A stretch of 64,000 bases of DNA from Nannocystis bainbridge (GTDB lineage: Bacteria > Myxococcota_A > Polyangia > Nannocystales > Nannocystaceae), in NCBI RefSeq assembly GCF_028368995.1, contig NZ_JAQNDL010000001.1:3680001-3744000 (forward strand). The letters run 5' to 3'. The notes below the pieces were generated by a model that saw only the letters and a program-made list of their open reading frames with translations, had not been told where the DNA came from and searched no databases. Within the stretch, counting starts at the first letter, position 1. Each line of letters starts with the position of its first letter. Shown piece by piece: positions 124 to 60,038 of the stretch. Both the position numbers and the translations under genes were made by a program.

Positions 124-179
124 TGTCCTTTACACCATGTCCCATCGCGCATGTCCCCGCGGACATACCCCAAGAGTCA
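124..179. repeat. Array of four 14-bp TGTCC-N4-GGACA-like units
   Basis: tgtcctttacacca|tgtcccatcgcgca|tgtccccgcggaca|taccccaagagtca fills the gap between two convergent stop codons. Confidence 0.7.
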
Positions 180-764
180 CCCGCGCGGCTCGATCGCCCG
201 CCAGAACAGCTCGACGATCTGCTCGCGATAGTTCGGGTCGAGCTCCGGCGCCGCCGCGCCGAGGGCGTGGCGCATGAAGTGGGGCACCTGCAGGCTCGAG
301 CCGAACGCCGTCGCCAGCGAGCTCGGCGACGGCGCGACGATCCGGCCCGCGTCCGCCAGCTGGGTGAACCACGCCACCACGGCGCGGTGCGAACGCAGCC
401 CTGGCCAGCCCTCCTTCTCCCAGTTGAGCACCTTCGAAGGCTGGGTCTTGGCCGCCGACAGCACCGAGATGCACGGCATCTGCTGGACCAGGAACGCGTC
501 CATCTTGGCCGCCAGCTCGTGCAGCTGCTCGAGCACCGGCCGCTCGTCGGGGCCCTTCTCGAGGTCGGCGACCCAGGGCGGGCTGCGGGGGATCAGCGCC
601 CGCACCATCAGCTCTTGCTTGGTCCGGAACCGCTTGAACAGCGCCGCCTGCGACACCCCGAGCTCCTGGGCGATCACGTCCGTCGACACGCTCGGGCCGT
701 GCTCGAGGAAACACCGACGCGCGGTGTCGAGGAGCTCATCGTCGCTGAAAGAACGCGGTCGCAT
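177..764 (-). CDS. TetR/AcrR family transcriptional regulator
   Basis: N-terminal HTH (FSDDELLDTARRCFLEHG..STDVIAQELGVSQAALFKRFRTKQEL); divergent from the RND operon; start chosen at ATG 764. Confidence 0.92.
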   Translation of the reverse strand: MRPRSFSDDELLDTARRCFLEHGPSVSTDVIAQELGVSQAALFKRFRTKQELMVRALIPRSPPWVADLEKGPDERPVLEQLHELAAKMDAFLVQQMPCISVLSAAKTQPSKVLNWEKEGWPGLRSHRAVVAWFTQLADAGRIVAPSPSSLATAFGSSLQVPHFMRHALGAAAPELDPNYREQIVELFWRAIEPRG

Positions 765-957
765 CGCCGATTGGAGGGTGCCACCTTCTGAATAACACGC
801 CACCCTCTCCAATCACCGGACGCTCACACCTGCGCGCCCGCCGCCGCGCGTGTGGACGCGCTCGCTTCCGGACGGTCGCCCGGCCCGCTGCCGGACCCAG
901 CTCGATTCCGCACATCCCGAATTTCGGCTCCTGAGCGGTGCTAGCCCGGCAAATTCA

Positions 958-1031
958 AAGTAAGTGATTGCTCATTTATTTTTCTTGCGCCCGCCCGGGC
1001 CCCGAGTTAGAACGTGCTCACTCACTAACTA
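958..1031 (+). promoter_or_regulatory. Putative sigma70 promoter and TetR operator of the RND operon
   Basis: AT-rich patch; TTGCGC(985)-17 nt-TAGAAC(1008); imperfect inverted repeats taagtga-ttgc-tcattta and agttag..ctaact. Confidence 0.4.
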
Positions 1032-1185
1032 AATGCCCCAAAAGGCGCGCGTTCACGCCTGCCTGAAATCGCCGGACAATGTCATCACCTGTGATGATAC
1101 GACCCTGGTCGATGCATTTATGGCGCGTGCGAATGGCACGCGTGCGGACAATCGAAGCTACTCACATTCCGAGGCGGCCCCAGCA

Positions 1186-2184
1186 ATGACACCCGTGCAC
1201 CTCTCACGCCTGCTCCTCGGGGCGGCGCTGCTCATCCCCTTCGCGTGCGACAGCGGCGACCAGCCGAAGATCGGTCTCCCCCCGGCGCGCGCGGCCGACG
1301 GCGCTGACGCCCCCAAGGTCCCGGGTCCCCCGCCGCGGCCCGAGCAGGGGCCCGCCGCCGCTGCGCCGACCGCCAGCGCCGCCGGCCGCTACGTCGCCAC
1401 CGCCCTGCCCAAGCACAGCGCCGACCTCAGCCCGCGCATGAGCGGCACCCTCACCGACGTGATGGTGGAGGAGGGCGAGCGGGTCAAGAAGGGTCAATTG
1501 CTGTTCCGCCTCGACGCCCGCGCCAGCCGCCTCGGCATCGCCCAGGCCGAGGCCTCGCTGCAGGGCGCCACCATCCAGCGGGACAACGCCCAGCGCGAGC
1601 TCGAGCGCCAGCAACGCCTGGCCCAGTCCGGCACCATCTCCGCCGCCGTGCTCGAGCGGGCCGAGGCCACCTTCACCAGCGCCAGCAACGGCATCAGCCA
1701 GGCCGAGGTCGCCCTGTCGATGGCCAAGCGCAACAGCGGCGACTCCACCGTGTCGTCGCCGATCGACGGCGTCGTCACCAAGAAGGCCAAGCACGTCGGC
1801 GAGTCGGTGACGATGATGCCGCCGACCGTCGTGATGGTCGTCCAGGACCAGTCCGTCATCGAGCTGCGCGCGCGCATCCCCGAGGCCGCGCTCAAGACCA
1901 TCCGCGAGGGTCAGACGATCACCGCCCACTTCAGCGCGCTCGAGCTGGCCCGCAGCGCCACCGTCGTGCGCATCCAGCCGACCGTCGACGCCCAGACCCG
2001 CACCATCGAGATCGTCGCCGACGTCGCCAACGCCGACAACCTGCTGCGCCCCGGCATGTACGTCGAGGTCGAGCTGACCCCGCCGGCCGCCGAGGTCGCC
2101 GCCGCCCCGGCCGCGGCCGGCAAGGAGCAACCCGTCGCCAGCGCCAAGCGCAAGCGGTCGCCGACCGCGGGGGCCAAGCTGTGA
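1186..2184 (+). CDS. RND efflux periplasmic adaptor (MFP) lipoprotein
   Basis: Lipobox-like IPFAC; lipoyl-like SGTLTDVMVEEGERVKKGQLL; SPIDGVV; LRPGMYVEV; GTGA overlap with next gene. Confidence 0.93.
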   Translation: MTPVHLSRLLLGAALLIPFACDSGDQPKIGLPPARAADGADAPKVPGPPPRPEQGPAAAAPTASAAGRYVATALPKHSADLSPRMSGTLTDVMVEEGERVKKGQLLFRLDARASRLGIAQAEASLQGATIQRDNAQRELERQQRLAQSGTISAAVLERAEATFTSASNGISQAEVALSMAKRNSGDSTVSSPIDGVVTKKAKHVGESVTMMPPTVVMVVQDQSVIELRARIPEAALKTIREGQTITAHFSALELARSATVVRIQPTVDAQTRTIEIVADVANADNLLRPGMYVEVELTPPAAEVAAAPAAAGKEQPVASAKRKRSPTAGAKL

Positions 2185-5100
2185 AGCTCGCCGAAATTTC
2201 GATCAAACAGCCCGTGTTCGCGGCGATGCTGATCGCCGCGCTCATGGTGTTCGGCCTCTACGCGCTGCCGCGCATCGGGGTCGAGATGTTCCCCAGCGTC
2301 GAGTTCCCGGTCGTGACGACCACCGTCGTCTACCCGGGCGCCGACCCGGCGACCATGGAGTCCAAGGTCGCCGACCCGATCGAGGAGGCGCTGCAGTCGC
2401 TGAGCGGCGTCAAGCGCATGACCTCGCGCAACTACGAGGGCGTCACCGCGGTGATCCTCGAGTTCGAGCTCGAGGTCAACGGCGACCAGGCCGTGCAGGA
2501 CGTCCGCGACAAGGTCGCCGCGATCGAGCGCGAGCTGCCGAACGGCATCGACCCGCCGACGGTGCAGAAGCTCGACGTCGGCGCCACCCCGGTGCTCTCG
2601 GTCGCCCTCGCCGGCCAGCTGCCGATCGGCGAGCTGACGCGCATCGCCAAGGACGAGGTCAAGCAGCGCATCCAGCAGATCCCCGGCGTCGGCATCGTCG
2701 ACGTCATCGGCGGCCGCGAGCGCGAGATCAAGGTCCTCGTCAACCCGGCGCGCATGACCGGCTTCGGCCTCACCGTCGACGACGTCATCAACGCCATCAA
2801 GGCCGGCAACCTCGAGCTGCCCGCCGGCTACATCAAGAGCGGCGGCAACGAGCTCACGATCAAGACCAAGGGCGAGATCAAGAGCGCCGGCGAGATCGGC
2901 GACATCGTCATCGTCGGGGTCGGCGGCGCCGCGATCCGCGTCAAGGACTGCGCCGAGGTGCTCGACGACGTCGAGGACGCCCGCTCCGCCTCCTACCTCG
3001 ACGGCAACGCCGCCATCGGCCTCATCGTCCGCAAGCAGAGCGGCGCCAACGTCGTCTCGCTGGCCGAACGGATCCGCGAGGAGCTGGTCGAGATGGAGCC
3101 GCTGCTGAGCAAGCACGGCATCACCGCGGCGATCCCGACCGACAACTCGGTGTTCACCGAGCACGCGATCCACGACGTGCAGTTCGACCTCGCCCTCGGC
3201 GCGGCGCTGACCGTCCTCTTGATCCTCATCTTCCTCCACGACTTCCGCGCGACCTTCATCGCCGCGGTGGCGATCCCCACCAGCATCGTCGCGACCTTCG
3301 CGTTCATGAGCTACCTGGGGTTCACCTTCAACAACATCTCGATGTTGGCCCTGTCGCTGTCGATCGGCATCCTCGTCGACGACGCGATCGTGGTCATCGA
3401 GAACATCTACCGCCACCTCGAGATGGGCAAGGGCCGCATGCGCGCGGCCCTCGACGCGACGTCGGAGATCGGCCTCGCCGTCATCGCCACCACCCTCTCG
3501 CTGGTCGCCGTGTTCGTGCCGGTCGCCTTCATGAAGGGCATCATCGGCCGCTTCTTCTTCCAGTTCGGTATCACCGTCTCGGTCGCCGTGCTGCTGTCGA
3601 TGCTGGTCTCCTTCACCCTCACGCCGATGCTGTCGTCGGTGCTGATGCGCCACGGCCACGAGCACCAGCCCGGCTGGTTCGCCCGCACCTTCAACCGCGC
3701 CTTTGGCGGGTTCGAGCGGGTGTACACCGCCATCCTCGGCTGGGCCCTGCGCTGGCCGTGGACCACCGTGCTGCTGGCCGTGCTCTCGCTGGTCGGCTCG
3801 GTCGCCCTCGTCACCCGCGTGCCCGGCGAGTTCATGCCGAGTCAGGACCGCTCGCAGTTCGCCGTCCAGGTCGAGCTGCCGACCGGCACCGGCCTCGAGG
3901 CCACCATCACCACCGCCGAGGCCGTCGCCGCCGACCTGCGCGAGCACCTGCCCGGCGTCAAGACCACCTTCACCACCATCGGCGGCGGCCAGCAGGCCCA
4001 GGTCAACAAGGCCGAGATCCAGGTCATCCTCATCGGCCGCCACGACCGCGGCTTCGGCCAGCGCGACGCCATGCAATGGGTCCGCGACCGCATGACCGGC
4101 ATCGACGGCGTCCAGGTCACCGTCGCCGAGATCAACGCGCTCGGCGGCGACGGCGGCCGCAGCCAGCCGATCCAGTTCTCGATCCGCGGCAACGACCTCG
4201 CCGAGCTCACCGCCGCCGCCACCGCCCTGCGTGACGAGCTGGCCCAGACCGGCAAGTTCGTCGACCTCGACGTCACCTTCCGCGGCGGCAAGCCCGAGCT
4301 CGCCGTCCACGTCGACCGCAACAAGGCCGCCGACCTCGGCGTCCCGATCGCCTCTGTCGCCCGCACCATCCGCTCGCTCATGGCCGGCGACACCATCTCC
4401 GACCTCAAGGACGGCTCCGACATCTACGACGTGATCGTGCAGATGCCCGAGGCGCAGCGGACCCAGATCGAGGCGCTCAGCAACCTCAAGGTCCGCGCCA
4501 CCACCGGGCAGATGATCGACCTCGCCAGCCTGGTCTCGGTCGAGCGCGAGTCGGGCCCCAGCGAGATCGAGCGCCAGAACCGCCAGCGCCAGGTGCTGCT
4601 GCTGGCCAACCTGCGCGACGCCACCCTCGGCGAGGCCCAGCAGATCCTCGACGAGGCCGCCGCCCGCGTCATCCCGGGCCACCTCAGCACCGGCTACATC
4701 GGCAACGCCGAGATGATGAAGGAGTCGTTCGAGGCGATGCTGCTCGCGCTCGGCCTGGCGATCGTGCTCGTCTACATGATCCTCGCCGCCCAGTTCAACA
4801 GCTTCGTCCAGCCGGTCGTCATCATGATCTCGCTGCCGCTGTCGGTCATCGGCGCCTTCGGCGGGATCTACCTCGCCGGCATGACCCTCAACGTGTTCTC
4901 GTTCATCGGCCTCATCATGCTGATGGGCCTCGTCACCAAGACCGCGATCCTCCTGGTCGACTTCGCCAACGACGAGCGCAAGCGCGGGCAGGAGATCGTG
5001 CCCGCCCTCGTCAACGCCGGCCGCGTCCGCCTGCGCCCGATCGTCATGACCGCCGCCGCCACCATCTTCGGCATGGTCCCCGTCGCCCTGGCCCTCGGCG

Positions 5101-5285
5101 AGGGCGGCGAGGCTCGCGCGCCGATGGCCGTCATCGTCATCGGCGGCATGATCACCTCGACGGTCCTCACCCTCGTCGTCGTCCCGGTCTCCTACCTCCT
5201 GTTCGACCGCATGGTGACCGCCCGCTCGACCCGCTGGATCGCCCGCAAGCTGTTCGGCGACGCCCCGGCCGAGTCGCTCGACTAG
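2181..5285 (+). CDS. RND efflux transporter permease (AcrB/AcrD/AcrF family)
   Basis: 1034 aa; [14 protein letters not shown]; RLRPIVMT; two TM clusters separated by large periplasmic loops. Confidence 0.97.
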
Positions 5286-5295
5286 CAGGTACGAC

Positions 5296-5328
5296 ATGGC
5301 CTTCGGGACATGCTGTCCCGAAGGCCAT
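5296..5328. repeat. Perfect 15-bp inverted repeat made of two palindrome-like units
   Basis: atggccttcgggaca-tgc-tgtcccgaaggccat, just after the RND permease stop. Confidence 0.75.
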
Positions 5329-5429
5329 CCGCCGTCGCAGCCGCGACGGTCCTCTCGAAAATCTCACACTGTCACTTTGGCCCATCCAGGCGCCGCCCGT
5401 CGCGGCGGCGCCAGATCGAGCACTGCCGC

Positions 5430-6992
5430 ATGATCGCCATCGCCTCCCTCTTCGTGGTCGCCCTCGCCGCTCCGCCCGTCGACGCCGGCCCCGTGCCCGA
5501 CCCGCGCCGCGCCGCTGGCGTCGACTCGGCCGCCTCCCGGACCGTCGCCGTCGATGTCGCCGAGCTCGAGCAGATCCTGCGCGCGGGCCCGCTCGGCAAG
5601 GGCCTCGCCCCGGTGGCCGGCGGGCTCACCGACGACGCCGTCGCCGAGCGAGCGATCGCCGTGTCGCCGTCGCTGGCGATCAAGCAGGAGGCGATCGAGC
5701 GCGCCGCGGCCCGCGTCGACCAGGCGATCGTCAGCTTCTTGCCGACGCTCGGGGTCAAGGCCAGCTACTCGCGGCTGTCCAAGGCCGCGATCAACTTCGG
5801 CGGCGGCGCCAGCGTGGCCGCCGTCAACGGCCCGTCCGAGGGCGTCGCCCCGATCGTCGTCGGCGACTGCCCCGGCGGCGGGGGCCAGTGCGCGCTCGAT
5901 CCGGCCGGCGTGCCGCTCGTCATCACTCCGCCGTTCAAGATCCAGATCCCGCTCAACTCCTACTCGCTGTCGGCCAACCTCTCGGTCCCGATCTCCGACT
6001 ACATCCTCTCGCTCGCGCCCGCCCGCAAGGGCACCCTCGCCGCGCGCGAGTCGGCCGTGTTCGCCCGCGACGCCGAGCGCGTCAAGGTCCAGACCGACGC
6101 CCGCCTCGCCTATTACAACTGGCTGCGCGGCGTCGCCTCGCTGGTCGTCATCGAGGACTCGCTGCAGCGGACCCAGTCGCGCCTCGTCGACGCCGAGAAC
6201 CTGTTCGCCGCCGGCTCCGCCACCCGCTCCGACGTGCTCCGCGTCGACGCCCTCGTGTCGTCGCAGCAGGCCGCGATCGCCGACGCCCGCGCCTTCCGCA
6301 AGATCGCCGAGCGCAACCTCGCCGTCATGATGAACGAGCCGACCCGCGCCTACGACGTCGGCGAGGACATCCTCGCCCCGCCGCGCGACCTCGGCGAGCT
6401 GCCCACGGTCGACGACCTCATCGCCGAGGCCCAGGACAACCGCCTCGAGGTCCGCTCGCTCGAGCGCGCCGTCGACGGCACCCATCAGAACATCCGCGCC
6501 ACCCGGGCCGGCTACTACCCGCGCCTCGACGCCTTCGCCGACGCCCTGTACGCCAACCCCAACCAGCGGTTCTTCCCGCTGTCGCCCGTGTGGCGGGCCT
6601 CGTGGTCGGTCGGCGTGCAGCTCAGCTACACCATCAACCAGAGCCTGCGCACCAAGGCCCAGGTCCGCGAGCTCAAGACCAACAAGCGCGAGCTCGAGCT
6701 GCAGGCCGAGCAGTTGCGGCGCGCGATCGCCATCGAGGTCGCGCAGGCCTTCCACGACCGCGAGCGCGCCATCGCCGGGATCGAGCTCAGCACCCGCGGC
6801 CTGGCCTCGTCGGTCGAGGCCTACCGCGTCGCCAGCGAGAACTACAAGCAGGGCGCCGCGACCACCAACGAGATCATCGCCGCCGAGGGCGAGCAGGTGC
6901 AGGCGGCCCTGCGCGCCGTCAATTCGCGCATCGACCTCCACGTCGCCACCACCCGCCTGCTGTACGCGACCGGCCGCCTCAACCCGAAGTGA
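5430..6992 (+). CDS. TolC family outer membrane efflux protein
   Basis: Signal peptide; AIVSFLPTLGVKASYS and AGYYPRLDAFA repeats; YKQGAAT; follows MFP and RND. Confidence 0.9.
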   Translation: MIAIASLFVVALAAPPVDAGPVPDPRRAAGVDSAASRTVAVDVAELEQILRAGPLGKGLAPVAGGLTDDAVAERAIAVSPSLAIKQEAIERAAARVDQAIVSFLPTLGVKASYSRLSKAAINFGGGASVAAVNGPSEGVAPIVVGDCPGGGGQCALDPAGVPLVITPPFKIQIPLNSYSLSANLSVPISDYILSLAPARKGTLAARESAVFARDAERVKVQTDARLAYYNWLRGVASLVVIEDSLQRTQSRLVDAENLFAAGSATRSDVLRVDALVSSQQAAIADARAFRKIAERNLAVMMNEPTRAYDVGEDILAPPRDLGELPTVDDLIAEAQDNRLEVRSLERAVDGTHQNIRATRAGYYPRLDAFADALYANPNQRFFPLSPVWRASWSVGVQLSYTINQSLRTKAQVRELKTNKRELELQAEQLRRAIAIEVAQAFHDRERAIAGIELSTRGLASSVEAYRVASENYKQGAATTNEIIAAEGEQVQAALRAVNSRIDLHVATTRLLYATGRLNPK

Positions 6993-7003
6993 GCGCCCGT
7001 GTT

Positions 7004-8167
7004 ATGCATCGGCGTGACATGACCGGCGCCGACGACGACCCACGCGACGACGAGGACGACGAGGACGACGACGCCGACGAGCCGCCGCCCCCGCCCCCGG
7101 ACTTCACGCGCGAGCAGTTCCTCGAGTGGCGCTCGCCGCGATACGGCGCCGCCAACCCCGAGCGTCTTACCAATCCGGTGTGGACCTGGCTCGTGCGGGC
7201 CGGCGTCAACGCCTGGAGCGTCACCCGGCAATTCGACGGCCCCTCGGCCCTCGCGGCCGGCCCCGGCTGGTGCTTCGAGCGCTTCGGTCGCAGCACCACC
7301 GAGCTGCCCGACGGGCGCCAGATCCTCGTCGCCGGCGAGCACGAGGACTACTACGACCCCGACTTCTTCATCTACAACGACGTCGTCGTCCGCCACCCCG
7401 ACGGTCGCATCGACATCTTCGGTTACCCGCGCGACGTGTTCCCGCCGACCGACGGCCACTCGGCCACGCGCGTCGGCGACCGCATCATCCTCATCGGCAG
7501 CATCGGCTACCAGAACGAGCGCCGGCCCGGCCACACGCAGGTGCTCGCGCTCGACCTCGGGACCTTCGCCATCACCACCATCCCCACCGGCGGCGAGATG
7601 CCCGGGTGGATTCACGGCCACGGCGCCGCGCTGACCGACGACGGCCGCGCGATCGTGGTCCAGCGCGGCAAGCTCGAGCTCGGCGGTGACACCTCCCTCG
7701 TCGAGAACATCGACGACTGGCGGCTCGACCTCGACACCTGGCAGTGGCAGCGCCTCACCGATCGCCGCTGGCCTCGCTTCGAGCTCCACCGCGAAGACCG
7801 TCAGCGCAATCACCTGTGGGATCTGCGGCAAGCCTGCTGGTATCGCGAAGTCGGCTGGGGCGACCAGCTCGCGGAGCAGCTCGAGAAGCTCGACACGGCG
7901 CTCGGAGCCCCGCCCGACCTCGACCTCGCCGGGCAGCTGTTCCGCCCGTCCATCGCCCACGAGGTGCTCAAGGACGACGACGACGCGTACAACACCGTCC
8001 GCGTCCGCGTCGACGGCGTGGTCGTGCGCTTCGTCGACAACGGCCATTCGTTGCAGATGACCGTCGAGGGCGAGCTCCCCGAAGCCACGGTCCGAGCGAT
8101 CGCCGACGAGCTGCGGGCCAAGCTCGAGCTGCTCGAGCGGACGTCCTATACCTCGAAGCGGCTGTGA
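7004..8167 (+). CDS. Hypothetical protein with Kelch-like repeats
   Basis: WCFERFGRSTTELPDGRQILVAGEHEDYYDPDF; HSATRVGDRIILIG; acidic/Pro-rich N-terminus; distal part of the 5888-8167 ORF. Confidence 0.7.
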   Translation: MHRRDMTGADDDPRDDEDDEDDDADEPPPPPPDFTREQFLEWRSPRYGAANPERLTNPVWTWLVRAGVNAWSVTRQFDGPSALAAGPGWCFERFGRSTTELPDGRQILVAGEHEDYYDPDFFIYNDVVVRHPDGRIDIFGYPRDVFPPTDGHSATRVGDRIILIGSIGYQNERRPGHTQVLALDLGTFAITTIPTGGEMPGWIHGHGAALTDDGRAIVVQRGKLELGGDTSLVENIDDWRLDLDTWQWQRLTDRRWPRFELHREDRQRNHLWDLRQACWYREVGWGDQLAEQLEKLDTALGAPPDLDLAGQLFRPSIAHEVLKDDDDAYNTVRVRVDGVVVRFVDNGHSLQMTVEGELPEATVRAIADELRAKLELLERTSYTSKRL

Positions 8168-8323
8168 TTCACGCCGGCGCTGTCGCCCTTCCTCCGACAT
8201 CGCCGGCCGTGAACCACGCATCCTGGTGCGGCCTGCAAAATTTCGTGCGTCGCGGCGGCTCCCGATGACCGGAAGCGGCGGGAGCCTGCACTACCTCCCA
8301 GGTCCCTCGTCGGCCCCGGGCTC

Positions 8324-8881
8324 GTGATGACGTCGCCACGCTCTTCTTCCACCACCAACGCGAGCGCCTGGCTGGCGCTGCGCGACTACCTCGCCGACGC
8401 CTACAACAATCAGGACATGCGGCTCCTGCTCGAGCTGACGCTGCTCGCCGAGGCGGGTTCGCGGCTGCCGGACGAGCGGGTCTCGCCGCACGAGTTCGCC
8501 CACAACCTCTGCAGCCTCATCCAGCGCCACTCCGGCTACCCGGTGCCGGAGTTCTGGAAGCAGCTGGCCGACGACAGGCCCCTGCGCGCCCCCGAGGTCT
8601 ACAAGCTGCGCACGATCTTCGAGGCGGCCATGGCCGCTTCGGGTCGGCCCCCGCCGCCCCCGCCGAAGCCGCCCCGTCGCCGTCCGTTCACCGCGCCGCC
8701 GCTGCTCACCGCCGCTCTGATCACCGCCATCGGCGCCGGCACGGCCTACTGCGCCGCGACCCGCAACGGCGACTCGCTGATCCCCAAGAGCACGATCATG
8801 TGCAACGACGGCACGCCCTCGCCGACCTGCACCGAGCCTCACGGCGGCTGCTGTTCGACCCACGGCGGCATCAAAAAATAG
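8324..8881 (+). CDS. Membrane protein: EAD-like helical N-domain, Pro linker, TM, Cys-rich DUF3761-like C-terminus
   Basis: LRDYLADAY..FWKQLADDRP N-domain; PPPPPPKPP; TM helix; CNDGTPSPTC..GCCSTHGG. Confidence 0.65.
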   Translation: MMTSPRSSSTTNASAWLALRDYLADAYNNQDMRLLLELTLLAEAGSRLPDERVSPHEFAHNLCSLIQRHSGYPVPEFWKQLADDRPLRAPEVYKLRTIFEAAMAASGRPPPPPPKPPRRRPFTAPPLLTAALITAIGAGTAYCAATRNGDSLIPKSTIMCNDGTPSPTCTEPHGGCCSTHGGIKK

Positions 8882-8952
8882 CCTGAACGACCTTACCGCT
8901 CGCGCGACGGCGCCGCGATCGCTCGCGGCGTCGTGATGGATCTCTGTTGCCC

Positions 8953-9525
8953 ATGCACGACCACGACCACGCCAACAGCCTCTCGATCGGCGGACCGAAC
9001 GGCATACGCATCTCCGCACCGGCAGCCCCTGCGCGTCGAACCTCGGACGCACCGACCCGCCTCGCCGACCCGCGCACCAGCGTCGCGGTCCAGCGCGGCC
9101 TGGCGGCGCACGGCCGGCTCATCGTCGGCGGCGTGGCGATCCTCGGCGGCGTCGTCCTCCTGTCGTGGCTCGCGCTCGTCAGCAGCCTCGCGCTTCCGGG
9201 CCTGTTGGTGCTGCCCGGCGTGGTCGCTGCCGCGGCGCTGTGGATCGCCGCCGCCGTGATCCACGTGATCGCGCGCGACAGCCGGCGCTCGCTCGCCGCG
9301 GCGCGCGAGCAGCGGATCCTCGCCCTCGCCGCGCGCACGCCCGGCCCGCTGACCGTCGTCGAGGTCGCGCGCGCGCTCGACCTCTCGCTCGCCGACGCCG
9401 AGGCCGCCCTGACCGCCATGAGCCGCGGCGGCCACATGGACGCCGACATCGACCTCGACAGCGGTCGACTCCAGTTCTCCCTCGCAGCCCGCCCCGCATC
9501 CCTCGCCCAGGACCTTCGCCCATGA
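8953..9525 (+). CDS. Two-TM protein with C-terminal winged-HTH-like segment
   Basis: Two hydrophobic helices, then EQRILALAARTPGPLTVVEVARALDLSLADAEAALTAM. Confidence 0.65.
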   Translation: MHDHDHANSLSIGGPNGIRISAPAAPARRTSDAPTRLADPRTSVAVQRGLAAHGRLIVGGVAILGGVVLLSWLALVSSLALPGLLVLPGVVAAAALWIAAAVIHVIARDSRRSLAAAREQRILALAARTPGPLTVVEVARALDLSLADAEAALTAMSRGGHMDADIDLDSGRLQFSLAARPASLAQDLRP

Positions 9526-10028
9526 ATCAACTATCGACCTTGCCGCCCCCGCGCTCGCCCGCCCCTGCTCCGCTCGCAACCCCGCCGGTGTTCGACCCGC
9601 GGTGGGCCCAGGCGATGCAGGCCGGCCCCGGCCAGCAACCCATGGCCTCTCCGCCTCAAGGCCAGGCGCAGGCGTTCGGCCAGCCCGGGGCCATGCCCGC
9701 CCAGAACATGATGTACCCGGCCCAGGGCTATCCGCAGCCGATCAACATCGTCGTCCAGAACACCAACACGATGACGCAGGGCCCGGCCGCCGGGGCGCTC
9801 GTGCGGGTCGCCGATCGCAACAAGTGGGTCGCCGCGCTCCTGGCCTTCTTCCTCGGCGGCTTCGGCATCCACAAGTTCTATCTCGGCCAGACCGGCATGG
9901 GCATCGTCTATCTGCTGTTCTTCTGGACGCTGATCCCGATGGTCATCAGCCTGATCGAGACCTTGCTGCTGGTCCTCGCCAGCCAGCGCGAGTTCGACGT
10001 GCGCTTCAACTCGCGGCTGGCGCGCTGA
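9522..10028 (+). CDS. TM2/NINE domain membrane protein
   Basis: RNKWVAALLAFFLGGFGIHKFYLGQTGMGIVYLLFFWT; ATGA overlap with the upstream gene. Confidence 0.9.
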   Translation: MNQLSTLPPPRSPAPAPLATPPVFDPRWAQAMQAGPGQQPMASPPQGQAQAFGQPGAMPAQNMMYPAQGYPQPINIVVQNTNTMTQGPAAGALVRVADRNKWVAALLAFFLGGFGIHKFYLGQTGMGIVYLLFFWTLIPMVISLIETLLLVLASQREFDVRFNSRLAR

Positions 10029-12604: not shown

Positions 12605-12612
12605 GCTGATCG

Positions 12613-12654
12613 CGACGGCCCGCGGCGGCCCGATCGGGTCGCTACCGCGGGCCG
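12613..12654. terminator. GC-rich hairpin between convergent vgrG and LRR genes
   Basis: cggcccgcgg..cccgatcggg..ccgcgggccg inverted repeat; no U-tract. Confidence 0.35.
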
Positions 12655-49727: not shown

Positions 49728-49739
49728 CCCGCCCCGCGC

Positions 49740-50570: not shown

Positions 50571-51096
50571 GGGGTCCTCGCAGGTCGCGCCCGGCGCGAC
50601 GCGGTGACCTTGACACCCGGGCCGCAGGACGCAAGCGCAGCTCCGCGCGTCCGGCAGGCTCGGCCACAGGGCGCGCGCAGAGAAGGCCGGTCGCGCCTCG
50701 TCCGCGAACCGGTCGCAGCCACGATCCTCGTTCGGCGTCGATCGCGGCCCGGTGGCAGCTGACCGCACATTCGCCGTCATGCCATTGACCCGTGATCGAT
50801 CGGCGTATTCCACATCGTCCTTCCCCACCGATCGCTCGCACGTGCGATTGGGCGATCCTTGCCATTCGGGGGATCTTGCCCACGCGGCCTTTGGGCCCCC
50901 TCGCGAACCGCGATGTCTCTTCAAGACGCGCATTTTGTCGCGAGATCGGGGACGACGTGAAACCGCTGTTTGCGAAATCATGCCTTGCAACCCGGCCCTA
51001 GGTCGGTCACCTTCGGGCTCCCATCTCTGCCGGCGGTCTTGCGGCCGTCGCCGGCGGGGCGTGATCGCGTGGGCCGCGGAGACCGGAAAACAGACC

Positions 51097-51444
51097 ATGG
51101 CAGCCTATTTTCGCTTCACCGACACCAATGGCCAGCCGCGCTTCGTGATCGAGCTCAACGACGAGGCCAAGATTGCGCATGCGCGGCGGATCCTCAGCGG
51201 CGAGGAGACCCAGCGGATCCACATCCACGGGCGCATCATCAAGCGGCCTGTGCCCTACAACCCGGGCTGGTCGTTCCACCTGGACTCGAACACCATCGAT
51301 TTCTTCGACATGGCGATCGAAGTGTGCGACTCGAGCATGCAATACCTCGAGGATCACCTCGACGAGGCCGGCGGCGCCTTCCTGCCCGGCGGGCACTGGT
51401 GCCCGTGGTCGTCGCGGCTGGTCGACGAGGTCAAGCCGGGGTAG
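51097..51444 (+). CDS. BP74/calmodulin-binding-protein-like small protein
   Basis: FVIELNDEAKIAHARRIL..YNPGWSFHLD..FFDMAIEVCD..YLEDHLDEAGGAFLP..WCPWSSRL. Confidence 0.8.
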   Translation: MAAYFRFTDTNGQPRFVIELNDEAKIAHARRILSGEETQRIHIHGRIIKRPVPYNPGWSFHLDSNTIDFFDMAIEVCDSSMQYLEDHLDEAGGAFLPGGHWCPWSSRLVDEVKPG

Positions 51445-51604
51445 CGGCATTCGCCGTGATCGTCGCCCTGCGGTCGCAGGGCGGCGCGGCGCATTGCGCC
51501 TGATCGCAAGGTGGCGCCATTGGCATGACCGCCGAACGGCGCTCGTGAATGGCGGCAATCACACGCCGGCGCTCGGGGCCGGCGCTCGTCATTTCGCCCC
51601 GCGC

Positions 51605-52747
51605 TCAGCGCACGACGAAGCGCAGGCCGGCGGCCTGCAGGCGCTCGATGAGCAGCTCGCCGCAGGCGGCCGCCGTGGTCGACACGCCACCTGTCTCTTT
51701 GCACATGTCTCGTTGTAACACCAGGCACAGCGCCGTCTCGCCGGCCATCTTGGCCGTCTCGTCGTAGCCCGGGTCGCCGCCGGAGACCTCGGCGATCACC
51801 GGCGGGTCGTCGCCGGCGCGGCCGACGAAGGTCACCTTGAACCAGCTCTTGGCCCGCACCTCGGGCGCGGGGCCGCTGCCGGGCGGGTGCATGCGCGACA
51901 GCAGGCGGCGCAGCGGGCCGATCTTGGCCGCGCCGACCAGCGCCCCGGCGCCCGCGATCGCCAGGCCGACGTGGTAGAGCCGCGGCATCGCCACGTAGTG
52001 CGCGTAGCTGAACTCGGGCCCGTAGTCGCCGCGCAGCCGGGCCGAGCGGCGAGCGATCTGCGGGTCGATGGTCGGCATCGGCACCGCCCAGCGGCCGAGC
52101 TCGCGCTGGTAGTGGATCGCGGCTCGCTTGCGTCCGCTCGGAGCGCCGCTCCGCGGCTTGCGTGAAGGGGTCGGGGCGCCGAGCACGCCGAGCGCGGACG
52201 CGAGCGTGCCGCCGGAGAAGCTGCCGCGGCCCTCGAGATAGCCGGCGATCGTCAGCGGCCGGCCCTGCGGGAGGGCGCGCGTGGTCCACAACACGCCGAG
52301 GTCGGTGGGGATGCTGTCGAAGCCGCAACACGGCAGCACGAGCACGCCGCGGGCCCGCGCCGCGGCGTCGTACGCGGCGATGATGCTTTCGACGAAGGCG
52401 GGCTCGCCGGTGAGGTCGAGGTAGTCGGCACCCTGCTCGACGCACGCGCGCACCACTGGTTCGCCGTAGCGCACGTAGGGACCGACGGTCGTTAGGATCA
52501 CGCGCGAGCTGGCCGCCATGCGCGCGAGCGCGGCGGGGTCGTCGGTGTCGGCGACGACGATCCCGACCTCACGCCCGAGCTCCGCGGCGACCGCGGCGAG
52601 CTTGTCGCGCGAGCGCCCTGCGACCGCGAGACGCACCTCGGGGGGCGCGTGGGCGGCGAGGTAGGCGGCGCACAGACGGCCGACGAAGCCGGTCGCGCCG
52701 AACACGGTGATGTCCCAGTCTCTCGCGGATGCAGCGGGCGGCGTCAC
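51605..52747 (-). CDS. Saccharopine dehydrogenase-like oxidoreductase
   Basis: FGATGFVG; AGRS; TTVGPY..GEPVV.AC; YLDLTGE; CGFDSIPTDLG; GDPGYDETAKM. Confidence 0.9.
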   Translation of the reverse strand: MTPPAASARDWDITVFGATGFVGRLCAAYLAAHAPPEVRLAVAGRSRDKLAAVAAELGREVGIVVADTDDPAALARMAASSRVILTTVGPYVRYGEPVVRACVEQGADYLDLTGEPAFVESIIAAYDAAARARGVLVLPCCGFDSIPTDLGVLWTTRALPQGRPLTIAGYLEGRGSFSGGTLASALGVLGAPTPSRKPRSGAPSGRKRAAIHYQRELGRWAVPMPTIDPQIARRSARLRGDYGPEFSYAHYVAMPRLYHVGLAIAGAGALVGAAKIGPLRRLLSRMHPPGSGPAPEVRAKSWFKVTFVGRAGDDPPVIAEVSGGDPGYDETAKMAGETALCLVLQRDMCKETGGVSTTAAACGELLIERLQAAGLRFVVR

Positions 52748-52800
52748 CGGGCGAGGATACCTTGTTTCTCGCGCGCGACCTGGCGATACACTCGTCCGCC

Positions 52801-57897
<5,097 letters not shown>

Positions 57898-58196
57898 TGT
57901 CCGCAGGGACAGGTCGCGGAGCGACATGTCCTCCGGGACATGTCGCGCGATCGCCCGCTCGACCCCTGCAGCGCATGAATGCGCGCCCAGCCATGCGCGC
58001 AAGATCCGAAGGGAGCACCCCGACCTGGACTATCGGAACATCCCCGGGGTCAAATCACCCCGACGCGCCGATCTAACCTGTCCCAAAGGACATTCATGTC
58101 GAACGACGCCGTGTCCCGCAATCACATGTCCCGAGGGACATGCGCGATCAAGACGATCGGCGCCGCGACCGCCGCTGTCACATGTCCGAACGGACA
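57898..58196. repeat. Cluster of 14-bp palindrome units
   Basis: tgtccgcagggaca (57898), tgtcctccgggaca (57927), tgtcccaaaggaca (58079), tgtcccgagggaca (58127), tgtccgaacggaca (58183). Confidence 0.85.
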
Positions 58197-58242
58197 GATG
58201 AATCCGCGCCCCGTCGATGCGAACCCAGCCACTGGCACATCG

Positions 58243-58289
58243 TCCCGCGCCCCCTTTTGAGCCCTTCTTTAAAAGGGGCGCACGCGGGA
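58243..58289. terminator. Long hairpin between convergent genes
   Basis: tcccgcgcccccttttga..ttaaaaggggcgcacgcggga. Confidence 0.45.
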
Positions 58290-58389
58290 TGCGATCGAAT
58301 CTGGCCGCTCCCGCGCACATCAGAAGAGGGTTGTTACCGGGCTCCATCTCGGGTCATGCCCATTCGGGCGTGGCCCACCGCGCGAACGA

Positions 58390-58878
58390 TCAGCTCGCCA
58401 TCGACGAGGGCGAGGCGCAGTACAGCGGGCTGTGCAGCGCGTCACCGAGGCGGCGGACCACCTCGTCGTCGGTCAGGTCGAGCCAGTCGTGGCCGATCTC
58501 GACATGCACCCGCGCGTACGCGCGCGGCGACAGCGCTCGACGCAGGTCGCCGAGCGCACGCGGCGGGGCGACGAGGATCACTCGCTGGACGCGGCGGTCG
58601 CCGACGCCGCGGTCGACGAACGCGGCGATCTGGCCGCTGAACTCGACCTCGGCCTTGTCGTGCGGGTTGCTGCGCGGCTCGAACGTGTGGCGGGCGGCGC
58701 CCGCGGACCCGCGCGAGCGGCCTGGGCGGTCTTCACCGACCTCATGGTTGAGCTCTCGCCCGCTCGTGAATCCGTCGCCGAACGGCCGGGTCAGCGCGGC
58801 GCCGGGTGCTTCCTGCACCAGGATCCGGCTACGCGAGCCGTCCATGAGGACGATCCAGGTAGGAGTGTGGGGCTTCAT
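58390..58878 (-). CDS. Host-attachment protein family (baeRF12-like)
   Basis: TWIVLMDGSRSRIL; DRPGR; VILVAPPRALGDLR. Confidence 0.88.
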   Translation of the reverse strand: MKPHTPTWIVLMDGSRSRILVQEAPGAALTRPFGDGFTSGRELNHEVGEDRPGRSRGSAGAARHTFEPRSNPHDKAEVEFSGQIAAFVDRGVGDRRVQRVILVAPPRALGDLRRALSPRAYARVHVEIGHDWLDLTDDEVVRRLGDALHSPLYCASPSSMAS

Positions 58879-59131
58879 GTCAAAAACCCTGATCGGGGAA
58901 GCCTCGTGAGGCCAACCGAAAAATTCCAACCTGGAGCGTCGCCGCGCCACCGGAGCGGATTTGCCGACATCCTGGTGAATGCAGCCGGCGGCAGCCTCGC
59001 CCCCAAGCAGGCTCTACGGGCTGTCAGGGCCCGCTGGCGGGCTGGCGCGGCAGATTTCACGGATCTGGCCGGAGTTCCGTGGATTGACGACCCGTTCAGC
59101 ATATTGTACGCCTGAAGAGTCCGAGGAACCG

Positions 59132-59926
59132 ATGAGCGCCGTCCTGCCGCACGCCCCGCTGTCCGTCCTGAGCCCCTCGCCTGCCCCGGTCGCGCTGCGC
59201 CTTGACGGCGTCACCAAGCGCCACGGCGCCGGCGGCGACGCGGTCGTGGCGCTCGACACGATGTCCTTCGCCGTGAAGAAGGGCGAATTCGTGTGCGTCG
59301 TCGGGGCCTCCGGCTGCGGCAAGTCGACCATGCTGAACCTCGTCGCCGGGCTCGACACGCCCTCGGCCGGCAAGGTCACCGTCGCCGGCGAGCGCCCCGC
59401 TCTGATGTTCCAGGAGTCGGCGCTATTCCCCTGGCTCAGCGTCGAGGAGAACGTCGCCTTCCCGCTGCAGATGCAGGGCCTGTCGCGCAAGGCCCGGGCC
59501 GCGCGGGTCGCCGAGCTGCTGCACCTCGTCCACCTCGACAAGTTCGCCAAGCGGCGCCCGCACGAGCTTTCGGGCGGCATGAAGCAGCGCGTCGCCCTCG
59601 CCCGCGCCCTCGCCCAGCAGGCCGAGCTGCTGCTGATGGACGAGCCGTTCGCCGCCCTCGACGCCATGATGCGCGACCACCTCCACAGCGAGCTCGAGAC
59701 CCTGTGGCAGAAGACCGGCCTCACCGTCGTGTTCGTCACCCACAACGTCCGCGAGGCCGTGCGCCTCGGCGACCGCGTCCTGCTCCTGTCCTCGCGGCCA
59801 GGTCGGCTCGTCGCCGAGTACCAGGTCGACCTCGACCGCCCGCGCCGCATCGAGTCGCCCGAGGTCGCCCGCCTCGCCCGCACGATCACCGACCGCCTGC
59901 TCGAGGCCGCCCGTGCCGCAGCGTGA
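59132..59926 (+). CDS. ABC transporter ATPase (nitrate/sulfonate/taurine type)
   Basis: GASGCGKST; FQESALFPW; LSGGMKQR; LLMDEPFAALD; FVTH. Confidence 0.95.
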   Translation: MSAVLPHAPLSVLSPSPAPVALRLDGVTKRHGAGGDAVVALDTMSFAVKKGEFVCVVGASGCGKSTMLNLVAGLDTPSAGKVTVAGERPALMFQESALFPWLSVEENVAFPLQMQGLSRKARAARVAELLHLVHLDKFAKRRPHELSGGMKQRVALARALAQQAELLLMDEPFAALDAMMRDHLHSELETLWQKTGLTVVFVTHNVREAVRLGDRVLLLSSRPGRLVAEYQVDLDRPRRIESPEVARLARTITDRLLEAARAAA

Positions 59927-59996
59927 GCTCGCCGGCGACCCCCTGGCCCGCGCGCACCTGCACGCCGTGCCCGGCGGCGACGACGGCGGGGCCACC

Positions 59997-60038
59997 GGTC
60001 GTGAGGGACATGTCCTGATCGACATGCCCGAACGGACA
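59997..60038. repeat. Three 14-bp palindrome units at the permease 5' end
   Basis: ggtcgtgagggaca|tgtcctgatcgaca|tgcccgaacggaca. Confidence 0.7.

Follow-up and report, generated by a model that had tools for sequence, protein, structure and literature searches.

A phased 14-bp palindrome iterated thousands of times in a Nannocystis genome and concentrated past stop codons

Introduction

A short palindrome, TGTCC-N4-GGACA, recurs in head-to-tail arrays along a 64,000-nucleotide stretch of the Nannocystis bainbridge genome (the window). Are these arrays read by a protein, do they act in the transcripts, or do they merely propagate? An earlier note, made from the letters of the window alone, proposed sites for a chromosome-organising protein, with a REP-like element as the alternative. 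A published account of the motif was not found in the literature. We describe it as a 'highly iterated palindrome' specific to this lineage. Our preferred but tentative reading, at a probability of about 0.38, is that its units are the sites of a candidate sequence-specific protein and act as gene-end architectural elements.

Results

The palindrome is real and far exceeds chance, as first claimed. The window holds 11 exact copies against 0.03 expected, a number reached in none of 100 dinucleotide shuffles, and the 11-Mb Nannocystis genome holds 1,987, compared to 3–16 for four control palindromes, an over-representation of more than 100-fold. Units with one mismatch number 4,258 in the genome (161–344 for the control palindromes). 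At a threshold of one mismatch or fewer, there are about 7,900 units genome-wide, in 5,239 arrays that keep a strict 14-bp register and are spread over all five contigs. The earlier estimate of one locus per ~5 kb was too sparse: the genome-wide density is one array per 2.1 kb, and the window contains 16 arrays in 64 kb. Density also follows base composition, with fewer sites where 50-kb bins are low in GC (r = 0.57).

The 14-bp periodicity also exceeded its null. In the window, same-type TGTC/GACA pairs occurred 13 times at lag 14 (mean 1.6, maximum 7, in 100 Markov resamples) and 7 times at lag 28 (1.4 in the resamples); lags of 7–13, 16 and 21 were at background level, and lag 15 was borderline (6, with a resample maximum of 6). 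Genome-wide, half-site spacings were enriched only on the 14-bp lattice: 1,987 and 379 inverted pairs for N4 and N18, 956, 638 and 275 for GGACA-N0/14/28-TGTCC, and 682 and 315 direct repeats for N9 and N23, with every other spacing at ~0–40. While the 14-bp period stood, the 15-bp period that had been described as occasional is rare, since units inside arrays are 14 bp apart in 2,218 cases and 15 bp apart in 3 (13 bp in another 3). As 58% of exact 14-mers stand alone, compared to 20% of GGACATGTCC decamers, the repeating unit is the 14-mer. Its consensus, RCA-TGTCC-YYRR-GGACA-TGY, consists of two inverted 7-bp half-sites (CATGNCY) on the 14-bp lattice, and half-sites of either orientation fall on a 7/14-bp lattice.

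The features of the window are as follows, with the strand given for genes.

124–179: array of ~4 units occupying the entire 56-bp gap of a convergent gene pair; units 138–165 reach threshold; the orthologous gap in relative G010 holds a different, shorter array
118–120 and 177–803 (minus): stop codon, and tetR-family gene (Pfam TetR_N), around this array
5293–5330: two units whose complementary centres make a palindrome with a 15-bp stem, between acrB-like and outer-membrane efflux genes; kept in G010; RNA fold −30.3 kcal/mol, z −6.0
13722–13735: lone exact unit; no aligned orthologue obtained
14185–14198: lone one-mismatch unit, possibly chance (background ~2 per 80 kb)
15286–15355: array of 4–5 units with AT-rich centres, beginning 19 nt past a TGA stop; RNA fold z −4.0
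16104–16145: 3-unit array, in copy 1 of a 132-bp direct duplication
16236–16277: array in copy 2 of that duplication, just 3' of the stop of an HMG-CoA-synthase-like gene
16285–17763 (minus): HMG-CoA-synthase-like gene adjoining the preceding array
27595–27622: 2-unit array, above the unit threshold
46199–46212: exact unit within an HD/AAA_33 ORF; exact in 4 of 5 relatives, one mismatch in G010, no indel
57898–57940: units starting at the first base after the TGA stop of a 1,722-aa kinase gene
58079–58196: three more exact units, sharing the convergent intergenic region of the preceding entry; this region spans 483–1,700 bp and contains multiple units in each of five relatives
59997–60038: 3-unit array in open frame at an ABC-ATPase/permease junction; kept in 5 of 5 relatives, with flanking indels in multiples of 3 nt
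45000–45041: degenerate half-sites under the unit threshold; doubtful member
51692–51720: half-site in conserved coding DNA, TGTCT here and TGTCC in 4 relatives; doubtful member
54567–54608: lag-14 pair of GGACA within conserved coding sequence; doubtful member

The last three had been listed as full loci and proved weak, being half-sites below the one-mismatch threshold; the other loci of that list, which gave the second array as 5297–5327 and joined 57898–58196, were clear. The list lacked the exact unit at 46199, within an ORF, and the one-mismatch sites at 31866 and 59787.

Positions relative to genes were taken from crude GC3-based ORF calls made for this analysis. A unit lies within 100 nt after the stop of 1,635 of 6,345 such genes (25.8%), and before the start of 7.6%. 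The proximity to stop codons that had been noticed at individual loci holds genome-wide: the first 40 nt past stops contain 464–540 units per 10-nt bin, compared to ~10 within gene ends and ~50–70 upstream of starts. Intergenic density falls from 0.69 per kb between convergent genes to 0.40 between tandem and 0.21 between divergent ones. About one fifth of units are in frame within ORFs, at loops and linkers. Exact units inside ORFs number 429 (22%), and about 1,060 solitary units stand in open frames. About a quarter of arrays also lie within ORFs, multi-unit ones among them, as in recQ, where the loop array is restricted to the large-genome clade, in which the loop is 6–30 nt longer. The neighbouring genes are functionally unrelated, in agreement with the earlier note, and of the 44 genes with arrays on both sides the 20 that were examined are ordinary enzymes.

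Two observations concern these positions. The 3' location could simply mark where extra DNA is tolerated, which counts against an architectural role at gene ends. Arrays inside ORFs, including the multi-unit arrays of recQ, sit badly with a role as barriers to transcription.

Conservation was measured across six species, on 44 units in 140 kb, with five related genomes that are mutually non-independent. Across the relatives only (the sites were picked in G000), identity was 0.952 in the arms, 0.877 in the flanks and 0.811 in the centre, and the arms exceeded the flanks in 40 of 44 units (Wilcoxon, 1.4e-7). At third codon positions in ORFs, identity was 0.963 in the arms (366/380) and 0.812 in the flanks (943/1,162). 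As the arms are kept above their flanks at third codon positions too, the constraint is on the DNA sequence: a selection-like force on the DNA itself keeps the arms and leaves the 4-bp centre free. Arm tolerance by position follows TGNCY, since of the 4,258 one-mismatch units 50 deviate at the G of position 2, compared to 1,889 at position 3. The contrast of conserved arms with a variable centre, as originally described, was thus recovered both within the genome and between species. Arms kept above flanking and synonymous sites, position-specific tolerance and the unrelated centres of 97% of adjacent units also bear out the view that the arrays look like operators and not like slippage repeats. 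In this it behaves as a DNA site with two-fold symmetry and sequence specificity.

How do arrays arise? Identical centres were found in 68 of 2,218 adjacent pairs (27 expected), and from this rarity we conclude that the arrays are old and not the product of fresh slippage. New sites can come from point substitution. Some were born without indels, for example at G003 48258 and 48528, and the in-ORF single units examined carried no indel. Tandem duplication extends arrays, as in one exact, in-frame 42-bp duplication specific to G000. At least one unit was retained in 78 of 92 locus-by-relative pairs, and the number of units at orthologous loci is fluid (set C ranges from 2 to 6 units and from 92 to 329 bp). 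Array growth happens where DNA tolerates it, in the first tens of bases past stops and in protein loops and linkers; in the latter only 42-bp steps preserve the frame.

The motif is abundant across Nannocystis. Two sister genera have it at low frequency, and a search of 400 other Myxococcota genomes did not find it. Exact 18-mers number 1–39 in the sister genera, 16–32 in two small Nannocystis assemblies and 265–369 in two large ones. A 100-fold gap in copy number between sister genera is less usual among binding sites under selection than where an element propagates itself or a drive operates.

Discussion

How might a protein use such sites? Each unit would be read on duplex DNA by a putative sequence-specific protein, probably dimeric and with cooperative binding to adjacent units. 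The arrays at gene ends could then have an architectural or boundary role, punctuating 3' ends with a coat of protein much as BIMEs do in E. coli. The motif may have been present at low copy in the common ancestor with the two sister genera, with a ~100-fold expansion in Nannocystis. No binding protein was identified for the palindrome, and no linked gene at the arrays. Like the sites of Noc (NBS), SlmA (SBS), MatP (matS) and ParB (parS), the unit is a palindrome in the 12–16-bp range of a kind read by dimers, and some of those proteins spread from their site. The analogy to Noc, SlmA and MatP drawn earlier nevertheless fails, as the sites of those systems number in the tens and follow a regional ori/ter logic, whereas here ~7,900 units lie on all contigs, flush after stops and inside ORFs. 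The accompanying argument, that the 42 bp of three units make about four helical turns, we regard as numerology. Closer in geometry are the arrays of ribbon-helix-helix proteins (omega of pSM19035, ParG, ParR), in which contiguous half-sites of 7 bp, direct or inverted, are bound cooperatively along the array; our half-sites, too, occur in both orientations on their lattice. Those arrays are single plasmid loci beside the gene of the binder, in contrast to thousands of chromosomal loci with no linked gene.

By analogy, the distribution looks like that of REP/BIME, DUS/USS or cyanobacterial HIP1 (Highly Iterated Palindrome 1, GCGATCGC). HIP1 is likewise a hyper-abundant short palindrome, as is our element with its excess over controls, its exact units in ORFs and its arms kept at third codon positions, but its eight bases are contiguous, with no variable centre, and it differs in sequence and comes from another phylum. 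We know of no head-to-tail phased arrays of HIP1 and of no pile-up past stop codons. It has reportedly been tied to orphan methyltransferases. One study describes it as abundant in and between ORFs and kept between genomes beyond background, with no peptide or RNA role found (PMC5861425). The REP/BIME/REPIN repeats of enterobacteria and pseudomonads, with their RAYT, share several traits with our element: species- or genus-specific palindromes, clustered and hairpin-capable, in hundreds to thousands, after genes and between convergent genes. In E. coli, REP/BIME are bound by the host proteins gyrase and IHF. Here, in contrast, a unit measures only 14 bp, of which the 4-bp centre is free, and neighbours abut in a single register. 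ORFs contain 22% of the exact units, birth is by substitution too, and no RAYT was found in 11 genomes (see below). The DUS of Neisseria and USS of Pasteurellaceae are similarly lineage-specific and present in ORFs, at about one per kb; they also form inverted pairs behind genes, and probably build up by point mutation and drive. Unlike our palindrome, they are oriented, non-palindromic words without fixed-phase arrays. Rickettsia palindromic elements (RPE) are said to lie in frame inside protein-coding genes, as do our recQ loop and linker arrays with their 42-bp step; RPE are, however, ~100–150 bp long and inserted whole, whereas our units measure 14 bp and in many cases no indel accompanies them.

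It is conceivable, though somewhat unlikely, that the palindrome is a genome 'tag' maintained by molecular drive and not by benefit to the cell, with a machinery that favours motif DNA spreading the mutations that create it. This part could be played by DNA uptake through a receptor followed by homologous recombination, on the model of DUS/USS, or by motif-directed repair or methylation, as proposed for HIP1; arrays would arise because overlapping sites share an ACATGT flank, so that each added unit needs fewer changes. Creation of sites in ORFs by substitution, the 429 exact units there, the conservation of arms at synonymous sites, and the lineage specificity with very different copy numbers between sister genera all fit, as does the sparser occurrence in low-GC bins, expected of recently acquired DNA not yet 'written'. 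HIP1 is said in one preprint to improve natural transformation, which we count in favour, and it is likewise kept within and between ORFs (PMC5861425). Its palindromic form and its head-to-tail arrays set our element apart from the oriented DUS/USS, its strict N4 spacing and 14-bp register indicate dimer geometry, and a canonical Vsr endonuclease was found in none of the four Nannocystis genomes searched.

An unlikely explanation is a selfish repeat without RAYT, similar to REP/REPIN or a minisatellite. Some enzyme would copy it, or else slippage of replication with template switching at palindromes, and it would survive in places where the harm is small, namely 3' ends and protein linkers; its arms would look conserved because only intact arms serve as substrates for further copying or conversion. 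Its preference for gene 3' ends and for the gaps of convergent pairs is as expected, and the 18-mer counts, the fluid unit number, the G000 duplication, the excess of identical centres and the clade-restricted recQ array all point the same way. Passive copies should decay, yet the arms exceed flanking synonymous sites in conservation. Inserting 14 bp would break the reading frame, but ~1,060 single units stand in open frames, and the in-ORF ones examined lack an indel. The unrelated centres of 97% of adjacent units and the ordinary enzymes between paired arrays also argue against copying, and none of 11 genomes yielded a RAYT gene (Y1_Tnp transposase), with a control that was positive in 6 of 14 known genomes. 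The REP-like alternative of the earlier note agrees in location, but not in what defines such elements, as RAYT is missing from the 11 genomes and the element is not extragenic.

An RNA element of 3' untranslated regions, with hairpins that stop transcription or protect mRNA 3' ends, is improbable. As the DNA is palindromic, the same hairpins would form on either transcript, and two adjacent GGACAUGUCC decamers can give a 10-bp stem with a 4-nt loop. Units are concentrated 0–80 nt past stop codons and densest between convergent genes, RNA folding of 5 of 7 window arrays surpasses that of shuffles (z −2.3 to −6.0), and pairing-preserving double changes are in weak excess (163 pairing and 135 non-pairing, 143 and 170 expected). 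In sense orientation A12>G (88) is twice as frequent as T3>C (44). A change at the middle of a 5-bp stem would harm it most, whereas here tolerance is greatest at the middle position, and G2 hardly varies. Most double mismatches are non-compensating, 2 of 7 window arrays fold no better than shuffles, about a quarter of arrays are inside ORFs, and no Rfam family matched. The arrays lack a U-tract, and 0 of 10 terminator-like sites in 1–20 kb fell on an array. The sense strand has no preference for UNCG or GNRA loops (TTCG 15, CGAA 25 in ORFs), and wobble-compatible changes number 191, compared to 158 mirror-image changes; from these counts, a strand-specific RNA signal is absent.

A MITE, or part of a larger mobile element, was rejected, as 257 of 5,278 flanks had a distant homologue.

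A palindromic unit on a strict 14-bp lattice

The palindrome TGTCC-N4-GGACA is far more frequent than base composition predicts. It occurred exactly 11 times in the window (GC 70.7%), compared to 0.03 times in dinucleotide shuffles. Across the genome of N. bainbridge (G000; 11.05 Mb in 5 contigs, GC 71.5%) there were 1,987 exact units, compared to 3–16 for four control palindromes of equal composition, and 4,258 units with one mismatch, compared to 161–344 for control palindromes.

When arm pairs were scanned over the whole genome at every spacing from 0 to 30, enrichment was confined to a 14-bp lattice, and all other spacings gave ~0–40 matches. TGTCC-Nx-GGACA was found 1,987 times with N4 and 379 times with N18, GGACA-Nx-TGTCC 956 times with N0, 638 with N14 and 275 with N28, and direct repeats of an arm 682 times with N9 and 315 with N23. 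An earlier note, made from the sequence of the window alone, had described head-to-tail units joined where GACA meets TGTC, and these are visible at the loci that it named. The lag-14 periodicity of TGTC/GACA that it proposed to look for is also there, with 13 pairs in the window against a mean of 1.6 (maximum 7); at lag 28 there were 7 pairs against 1.4. An origin by chance or composition was rejected, as the window and genome counts, the lattice spacing and the lag test were all far above controls.

Counting units with at most one mismatch, together with two-mismatch units in register alongside them, gave 7,861 units in 5,239 arrays of 1 to 10 units, or ~1% of the genome. The step from unit to unit within arrays was 14 bp in 2,218 cases, 13 bp in 3 and 15 bp in 3. 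The extended consensus is RCA-TGTCC-YYRR-GGACA-TGY, a fully symmetric sequence that lacks an asymmetric head; the unit measures 14 bp, or 20 bp including its flanks. The basic unit is the 14-mer rather than the junction decamer GGACATGTCC: 1,145 of the 1,987 exact 14-mers had no abutting arm, and 196 of the 956 decamers were without partner arms.

Exact units were present in every 100-kb bin of all five contigs, except the short last bin of contig C3. Their density followed GC content (r = 0.57 across the genome), and some bins of below-average GC held 2–6 units per 50 kb compared to a mean of 35.

Arrays follow the 3′ ends of genes

Genes were represented by a crude set of 6,345, taken from GC3-rich ORFs and covering 72–75% of each contig, on which a codon log-odds score was trained. 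Outside this coding mask, in ~27% of the genome, lay 62% of the exact units. Gaps between convergent genes had the highest density (0.69 units per kb), followed by tandem (0.40) and divergent gaps (0.21), and density rose approximately linearly with how many gene 3′ ends faced the gap.

The remark in the earlier note that many arrays start within a few nt of a stop codon extends to the whole genome, where 25.8% of genes (1,635/6,345) have a unit within 100 nt past the stop; 7.6% (483/6,345) have one within 100 nt ahead of the predicted start. Successive 10-nt bins over the first 80 nt past stops contained 464, 540, 423, 482, 373, 326, 300 and 253 units, compared to ~10 in bins inside gene ends and ~50–70 in bins upstream of predicted starts. 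Fine peaks at −3, +11 and +25, and at +2 and +16, relative to the stop indicate that the TGA stop codon often forms part of the first arm (as TGAcc or TGACA). No stop codon occurs in the arms or at the junction, whichever of the six frames is read, and arrays stay open unless the 4-bp centre brings one. Arrays therefore probably mislead ORF callers at gene ends, including the crude gene calls used here, which is of consequence for annotation, as the element accounts for ~1% of each Nannocystis genome.

The arms are conserved across six species

Syntenic DNA from five relatives (Nannocystis genomes at 82–94% DNA identity) was compared with 140 kb of G000, made up of the window and six other stretches. 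This DNA holds 96 G000 units, giving 480 unit-by-relative pairs.

Table. Outcome of the unit-by-relative pairs
Aligned without gaps: 195/480
Not aligned, mostly intergenic: 188/480
Indel nearby: 87/480
Unit deleted in the relative: 10/480

Table. Identity to G000
In ORFs: arms 0.954, centre 0.861, flanks 0.876
Outside ORFs: arms 0.945, centre 0.783, flanks 0.836

At third codon positions in ORFs, identity was 0.963 in arms (366/380), 0.811 in centres (99/122) and 0.812 in flanks (943/1,162). Since choosing the sites in G000 inflates identity to G000, the test was repeated among the relatives only. Identity was then 0.952 for arms, 0.811 for centres and 0.877 for flanks, in agreement with the reading from the window that the arms are conserved and the centre varies. 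Arms exceeded flanks in 40 of 44 units (Wilcoxon 1.4e-7, a p-value that overstates the evidence because the relatives are kin). The arms are conserved at the DNA level. An orthologous interval kept at least one unit in 78 of 92 locus-by-relative pairs, and the number of units at orthologous loci was fluid (for example, 3 in G000 against 6, 6, 0, 2 and 12 in the relatives).

Units inside genes, and the growth of arrays

Among 5,238 classified arrays, 1,319 were in a continuous open frame with coding potential on both sides; 1,060 of these were single-unit, 215 two-unit and 44 of three or more units. Such ORFs contained 429 of the 1,987 exact units, where control palindromes reached at most 16 exact matches per whole genome. 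Once translated, in-ORF units fall in low-complexity loops and linkers. In the RecQ helicase of six large-genome Nannocystis, a three-unit array occupies the loop ahead of the AIIYAPTRK motif, and a C-terminal linker holds a further one. The loop is shorter, unrelated and without the motif in G008 (a smaller Nannocystis assembly) and in 15 other genera, by 6–30 nt in the four compared at the DNA level, and homology confirms the array within recQ.

Sites originate both by substitution and by duplication. An ornithine-cyclodeaminase gene has an exact unit in one of the compared genomes (G003), at a place where the other five genomes have 1–4 arm mismatches and no indel; a second G003 unit nearby differs from the other genomes by a cluster of substitutions. 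At C3:1609372, an in-ORF array measures 116 bp in G000 and 74 bp in all five relatives; the difference is exactly 42 bp, or three units, and the extra piece is a repeat of neighbouring units. The smallest multiple of 14 that preserves the reading frame is 42. The recQ arrays and this 42-bp in-frame step show that a DNA-level signal can shape protein loops. Adjacent units had identical 4-bp centres in 68 of 2,218 cases (27 expected), which rules out recent minisatellite slippage as the main source of arrays.

In N. punicea (G001), the orthologue of window positions 57898–58400 (loci L029/L030) is an intergenic region of ~1,700 bp with ~15 units inside a longer repeat of roughly 130 bp. Arrays can thus also amplify within larger local modules. 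Metagenome contigs from four runs over window positions 44001–64000 were short, of low depth and too fragmentary to reveal gain or loss of units; one of them (run X2) had 22 extra letters relative to the window across 57925–58275, a hint that a related soil strain may have an array of different length.

Distribution among related genera

The closest relatives of one protein encoded in the window came from Nannocystis punicea, N. pusilla, N. exedens and N. sp. RBIL2 (82–91% amino-acid identity). A two-unit pattern was present in 9 of 10 other Nannocystis genomes. It was absent from all 20 genomes searched in other genera of this family and class, as well as from a further 400 Myxococcota genomes covering 254 genera. 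Genomes were also searched with a longer single-site query, the 18-mer CATGTCC-N4-GGACATG, for which the reversed control gave 0 everywhere.

Table. Exact 18-mers per genome
G000, the genome under study: 369
G005, another large Nannocystis assembly: 265
G008 and G002, smaller Nannocystis assemblies: 32 and 16
Sister genus g2, 4/4 genomes: 2–6
Sister genus g4, 4/4 genomes: 1–39
14 other genera of the family, 29 genomes: 0

Judged from these counts, the site predates the genus Nannocystis and expanded ~100-fold within it. A de novo scan for any 5-Nx-5 palindrome found nothing comparable in small samples of two genomes of other genera (G011, 166 kb; G013, 119 kb).

Low-copy sites in the sister genera were surveyed at 20 loci in 6 genomes, with G441 (6 sites) and G448 (39 sites) left out. 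Eight of the 20 were located 14–51 nt past a stop codon, three lay across a start codon and the rest were in ORFs. None of the 20 loci had a DNA-binding gene beside the site, and the neighbours were unrelated (the ruvX-mltG junction, ddl, fabF/fabG, DUF4215 lipoproteins). Four g2 genomes (loci L149, L153, L155 and L164, locus position 3001–3018) have in common an 18-bp site at the ruvX-mltG (yceG) junction, which may be an ancestral, functional copy. With an ATG inside it and a TGA after it, this site could lie across a stop/start junction.

Comparison with known repeat and site systems

Nannocystis carries a lineage-specific interrupted palindrome on a strict lattice, placed flush after stop codons and in protein linkers. 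We favour, at a probability of roughly 0.4, a host function at gene ends, with the arrays acting as BIME-like architectural or barrier elements. Their placement resembles that of REP/BIME elements, as they follow genes and are densest between convergent ones. The four readings weighed here are not mutually exclusive, since REPs are selfish elements that their hosts also put to use.

The closest described phenomenon is HIP1 of cyanobacteria; REP/BIME, DUS/USS, RPE (Rickettsia palindromic elements), omega/ParG heptad arrays and Noc/SlmA/MatP sites were compared as well. A hallmark of HIP1-like palindromes is a cognate orphan DNA methyltransferase specific for the whole motif or for its core. DUS/USS are oriented, non-palindromic 9–12-mers, and the competence machinery preferentially takes up DNA that bears them. 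A tag kept by molecular drive, of the kind considered for DUS/USS and HIP1 and working via uptake, repair or methylation, is a doubtful explanation of the arrays, if the best of the rivals. In one account, HIP1 is a short palindrome over-represented 15–300-fold and conserved within and between ORFs, with an unsettled function (PMC5861425). The Nannocystis unit is likewise over-represented (1,987 versus 3–16 for controls; 11 versus 0.03 in the window) and conserved, its arms exceeding flanks in and outside ORFs and in 40 of 44 units among the relatives only. In contrast to DUS/USS, it is an interrupted palindrome of one fixed spacing. Vsr-type repair drive was rejected, as no Vsr endonuclease was found in the four Nannocystis genomes searched.

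We regard a selfish repeat that spreads without a RAYT as rather unlikely. The REP-like alternative in the earlier note fits the placement after genes and the enrichment between convergent ones, but it fails on other points. A search for the RAYT/TnpA-REP gene that the note had suggested (PF01797) gave no matches in G000 or in any of 11 Nannocystis genomes, while the control was positive in 6 of 14 known genomes; with the Y1 transposase gene (IS200/IS605-type), which REPs typically flank, absent from these 11, RAYT-driven REPs were rejected. The arrays are also not strictly extragenic (429/1,987 exact units and 1,319/5,238 arrays are in open frames), and the shape of the unit differs. REPs are imperfect palindromes of ~20–40 nt that carry a conserved tetranucleotide (GTAG, for example) on the 5′ side, whereas the Nannocystis unit is 14 bp long, symmetric and without a 5′ head tetranucleotide. 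MITEs and fragments of larger mobile elements have common sequence outside the repeat, along with terminal repeats and target duplications. There is no larger element behind the arrays: just 257 of 5,278 flanks (148 bp each) of non-coding arrays had a distant homologue, and an IS or MITE fragment was rejected on this ground.

The genes beside arrays are functionally unrelated, as had been noted for the window. The window's own neighbours are unrelated, and so are 20 genes flanked on both sides. These were the shortest (up to 467 aa), analysed with Pfam, of 44 genes that have arrays of at least two units on each side, and they encode ordinary, unrelated enzymes (for example, chorismate synthase, MeaB, an aminotransferase and NUDIX). 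A gene family linked to the arrays was therefore rejected for the 20 of 44 scanned.

Systems of the Noc/SlmA/MatP/ParB type have a cognate DNA-binding protein and use tens of sites, distributed regionally with respect to ori or ter. The analogy to Noc, SlmA and MatP drawn in the earlier note does not hold for ~7,900 units spread over all five contigs and all 100-kb bins but one, in a five-contig assembly without a placed ori or ter. The CRP/FNR geometry also differs, with N8 between TGTC and GACA in TGTC-type CRP-family sites, compared to N6 in the Nannocystis unit. The decamer GGACATGTCC equals the textbook p53 half-site, and the literature found on it was p53 work alone; a search for the p53 domain (PF00870) gave no matches, but the control was also without a match anywhere. 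Within the literature covered, with subscription journals and supplements outside it, neither the motif nor repeats of this kind were described for Nannocystis or other myxobacteria.

Base identity and RNA structure

Which bases vary bears on whether DNA or RNA is under constraint. The 4,258 one-mismatch units, folded by symmetry, had their mismatch at position 1 in 432 cases, position 2 (G) in 50, position 3 in 1,889, position 4 in 498 and position 5 in 1,389. The half-site is TGNCY, and its freest position is the middle of the would-be stem. In two-mismatch units inside arrays (n = 1,616), changes at paired positions were Watson–Crick in 145 cases (126 expected), G–U in 18 (17) and non-pairing in 135 (170). 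This pairing excess is weak, and the largest deviation was the placing of both mismatches in one arm (812 versus 655 expected). There was no preference for UUCG on the sense strand of ORFs (TTCG 15, CGAA 25). In co-directional 3′ regions, wobble-compatible changes numbered 191 compared to 158 mirror images, and one strand asymmetry was clear, with A12>G at 88 versus T3>C at 44. Our reading is that constraint acts mainly on base identity in duplex DNA.

Folded as RNA, five of seven window arrays were better than shuffles (z −2.3 to −6.0) and two were no better; adjacent GGACAUGUCC decamers are able to pair as 10-bp stems. No Rfam family was found in the window, and none of 10 terminator-like sites at window positions 1–20,000 coincided with an array. 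Intrinsic (Rho-independent) terminators are GC-rich hairpins followed by a U-tract, whereas the arrays are without T-runs. An RNA hairpin of 3′ ends, in favour of which stand these folds and the weak pairing excess and against which stands the free middle of the stem, is quite unlikely.

At window positions 5293–5330, between acrB-like and outer-membrane efflux genes, two units with complementary centres make a perfect 15-bp-stem hairpin that is conserved in N. exedens (G010). Given its RNA fold (−30.3 kcal/mol, z −6.0), it could act between the cistrons as a signal for processing or stabilisation.

A possible protein reader

Returning to a host function at gene ends, we infer that a sequence-specific protein reads the half-sites and that the arrays are cooperative platforms for it. 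It is a more specific and unlikely proposal that a lineage-specific nucleoid protein polymerises on the arrays in 14-bp steps, punctuating the 3′ ends of a quarter of genes. The arrays would then form barriers that are made of protein, work in either orientation and limit transcription read-through or the diffusion of supercoils from one gene to the next, and selection would be strong enough for sites to be written into protein linkers and, at synonymous positions, into coding DNA. If true, such a barrier role would matter in a 71% GC genome in which the arrays examined have no classical terminator signature.

The arrays provide a second, unrelated HIP1-like case, in a culturable soil myxobacterium. 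Their anatomy is more informative than that of HIP1, with a fixed half-site geometry, phased arrays, exact post-stop placement and measurable constraint at synonymous sites, and the 1–39 copies of the same site in sister genera add to this. What reads such motifs, and why they are kept, becomes a directly testable question.

Other features of the window

10463–12604: VgrG-like gene (Phage_GPD, Gp5_C, Phage_base_V), then a leucine-rich-repeat ORF, the strand of which comes from the crude caller and may be wrong.
16064–16317: direct duplication with a period of ~132 bp, downstream of an HMG-CoA-synthase-like gene; each copy consists of the same small array and ~60 bp of common sequence (tcttcgccattcgacgtcactcctcgttcacgcggt).
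45326–47270: RNA-ligase gene (PF09414), directly followed by an HD + AAA_33 (kinase-like) gene, which together look like an RNA repair pair; the HD/AAA_33 gene contains an exact in-frame unit that is exact in four of the five relatives and has one mismatch in N. exedens (G010).
58390–58950, minus strand: gene with Host_attach / baeRF family 12 domains (bacterial release-factor-like), adjoining the most array-rich intergenic region of the window.
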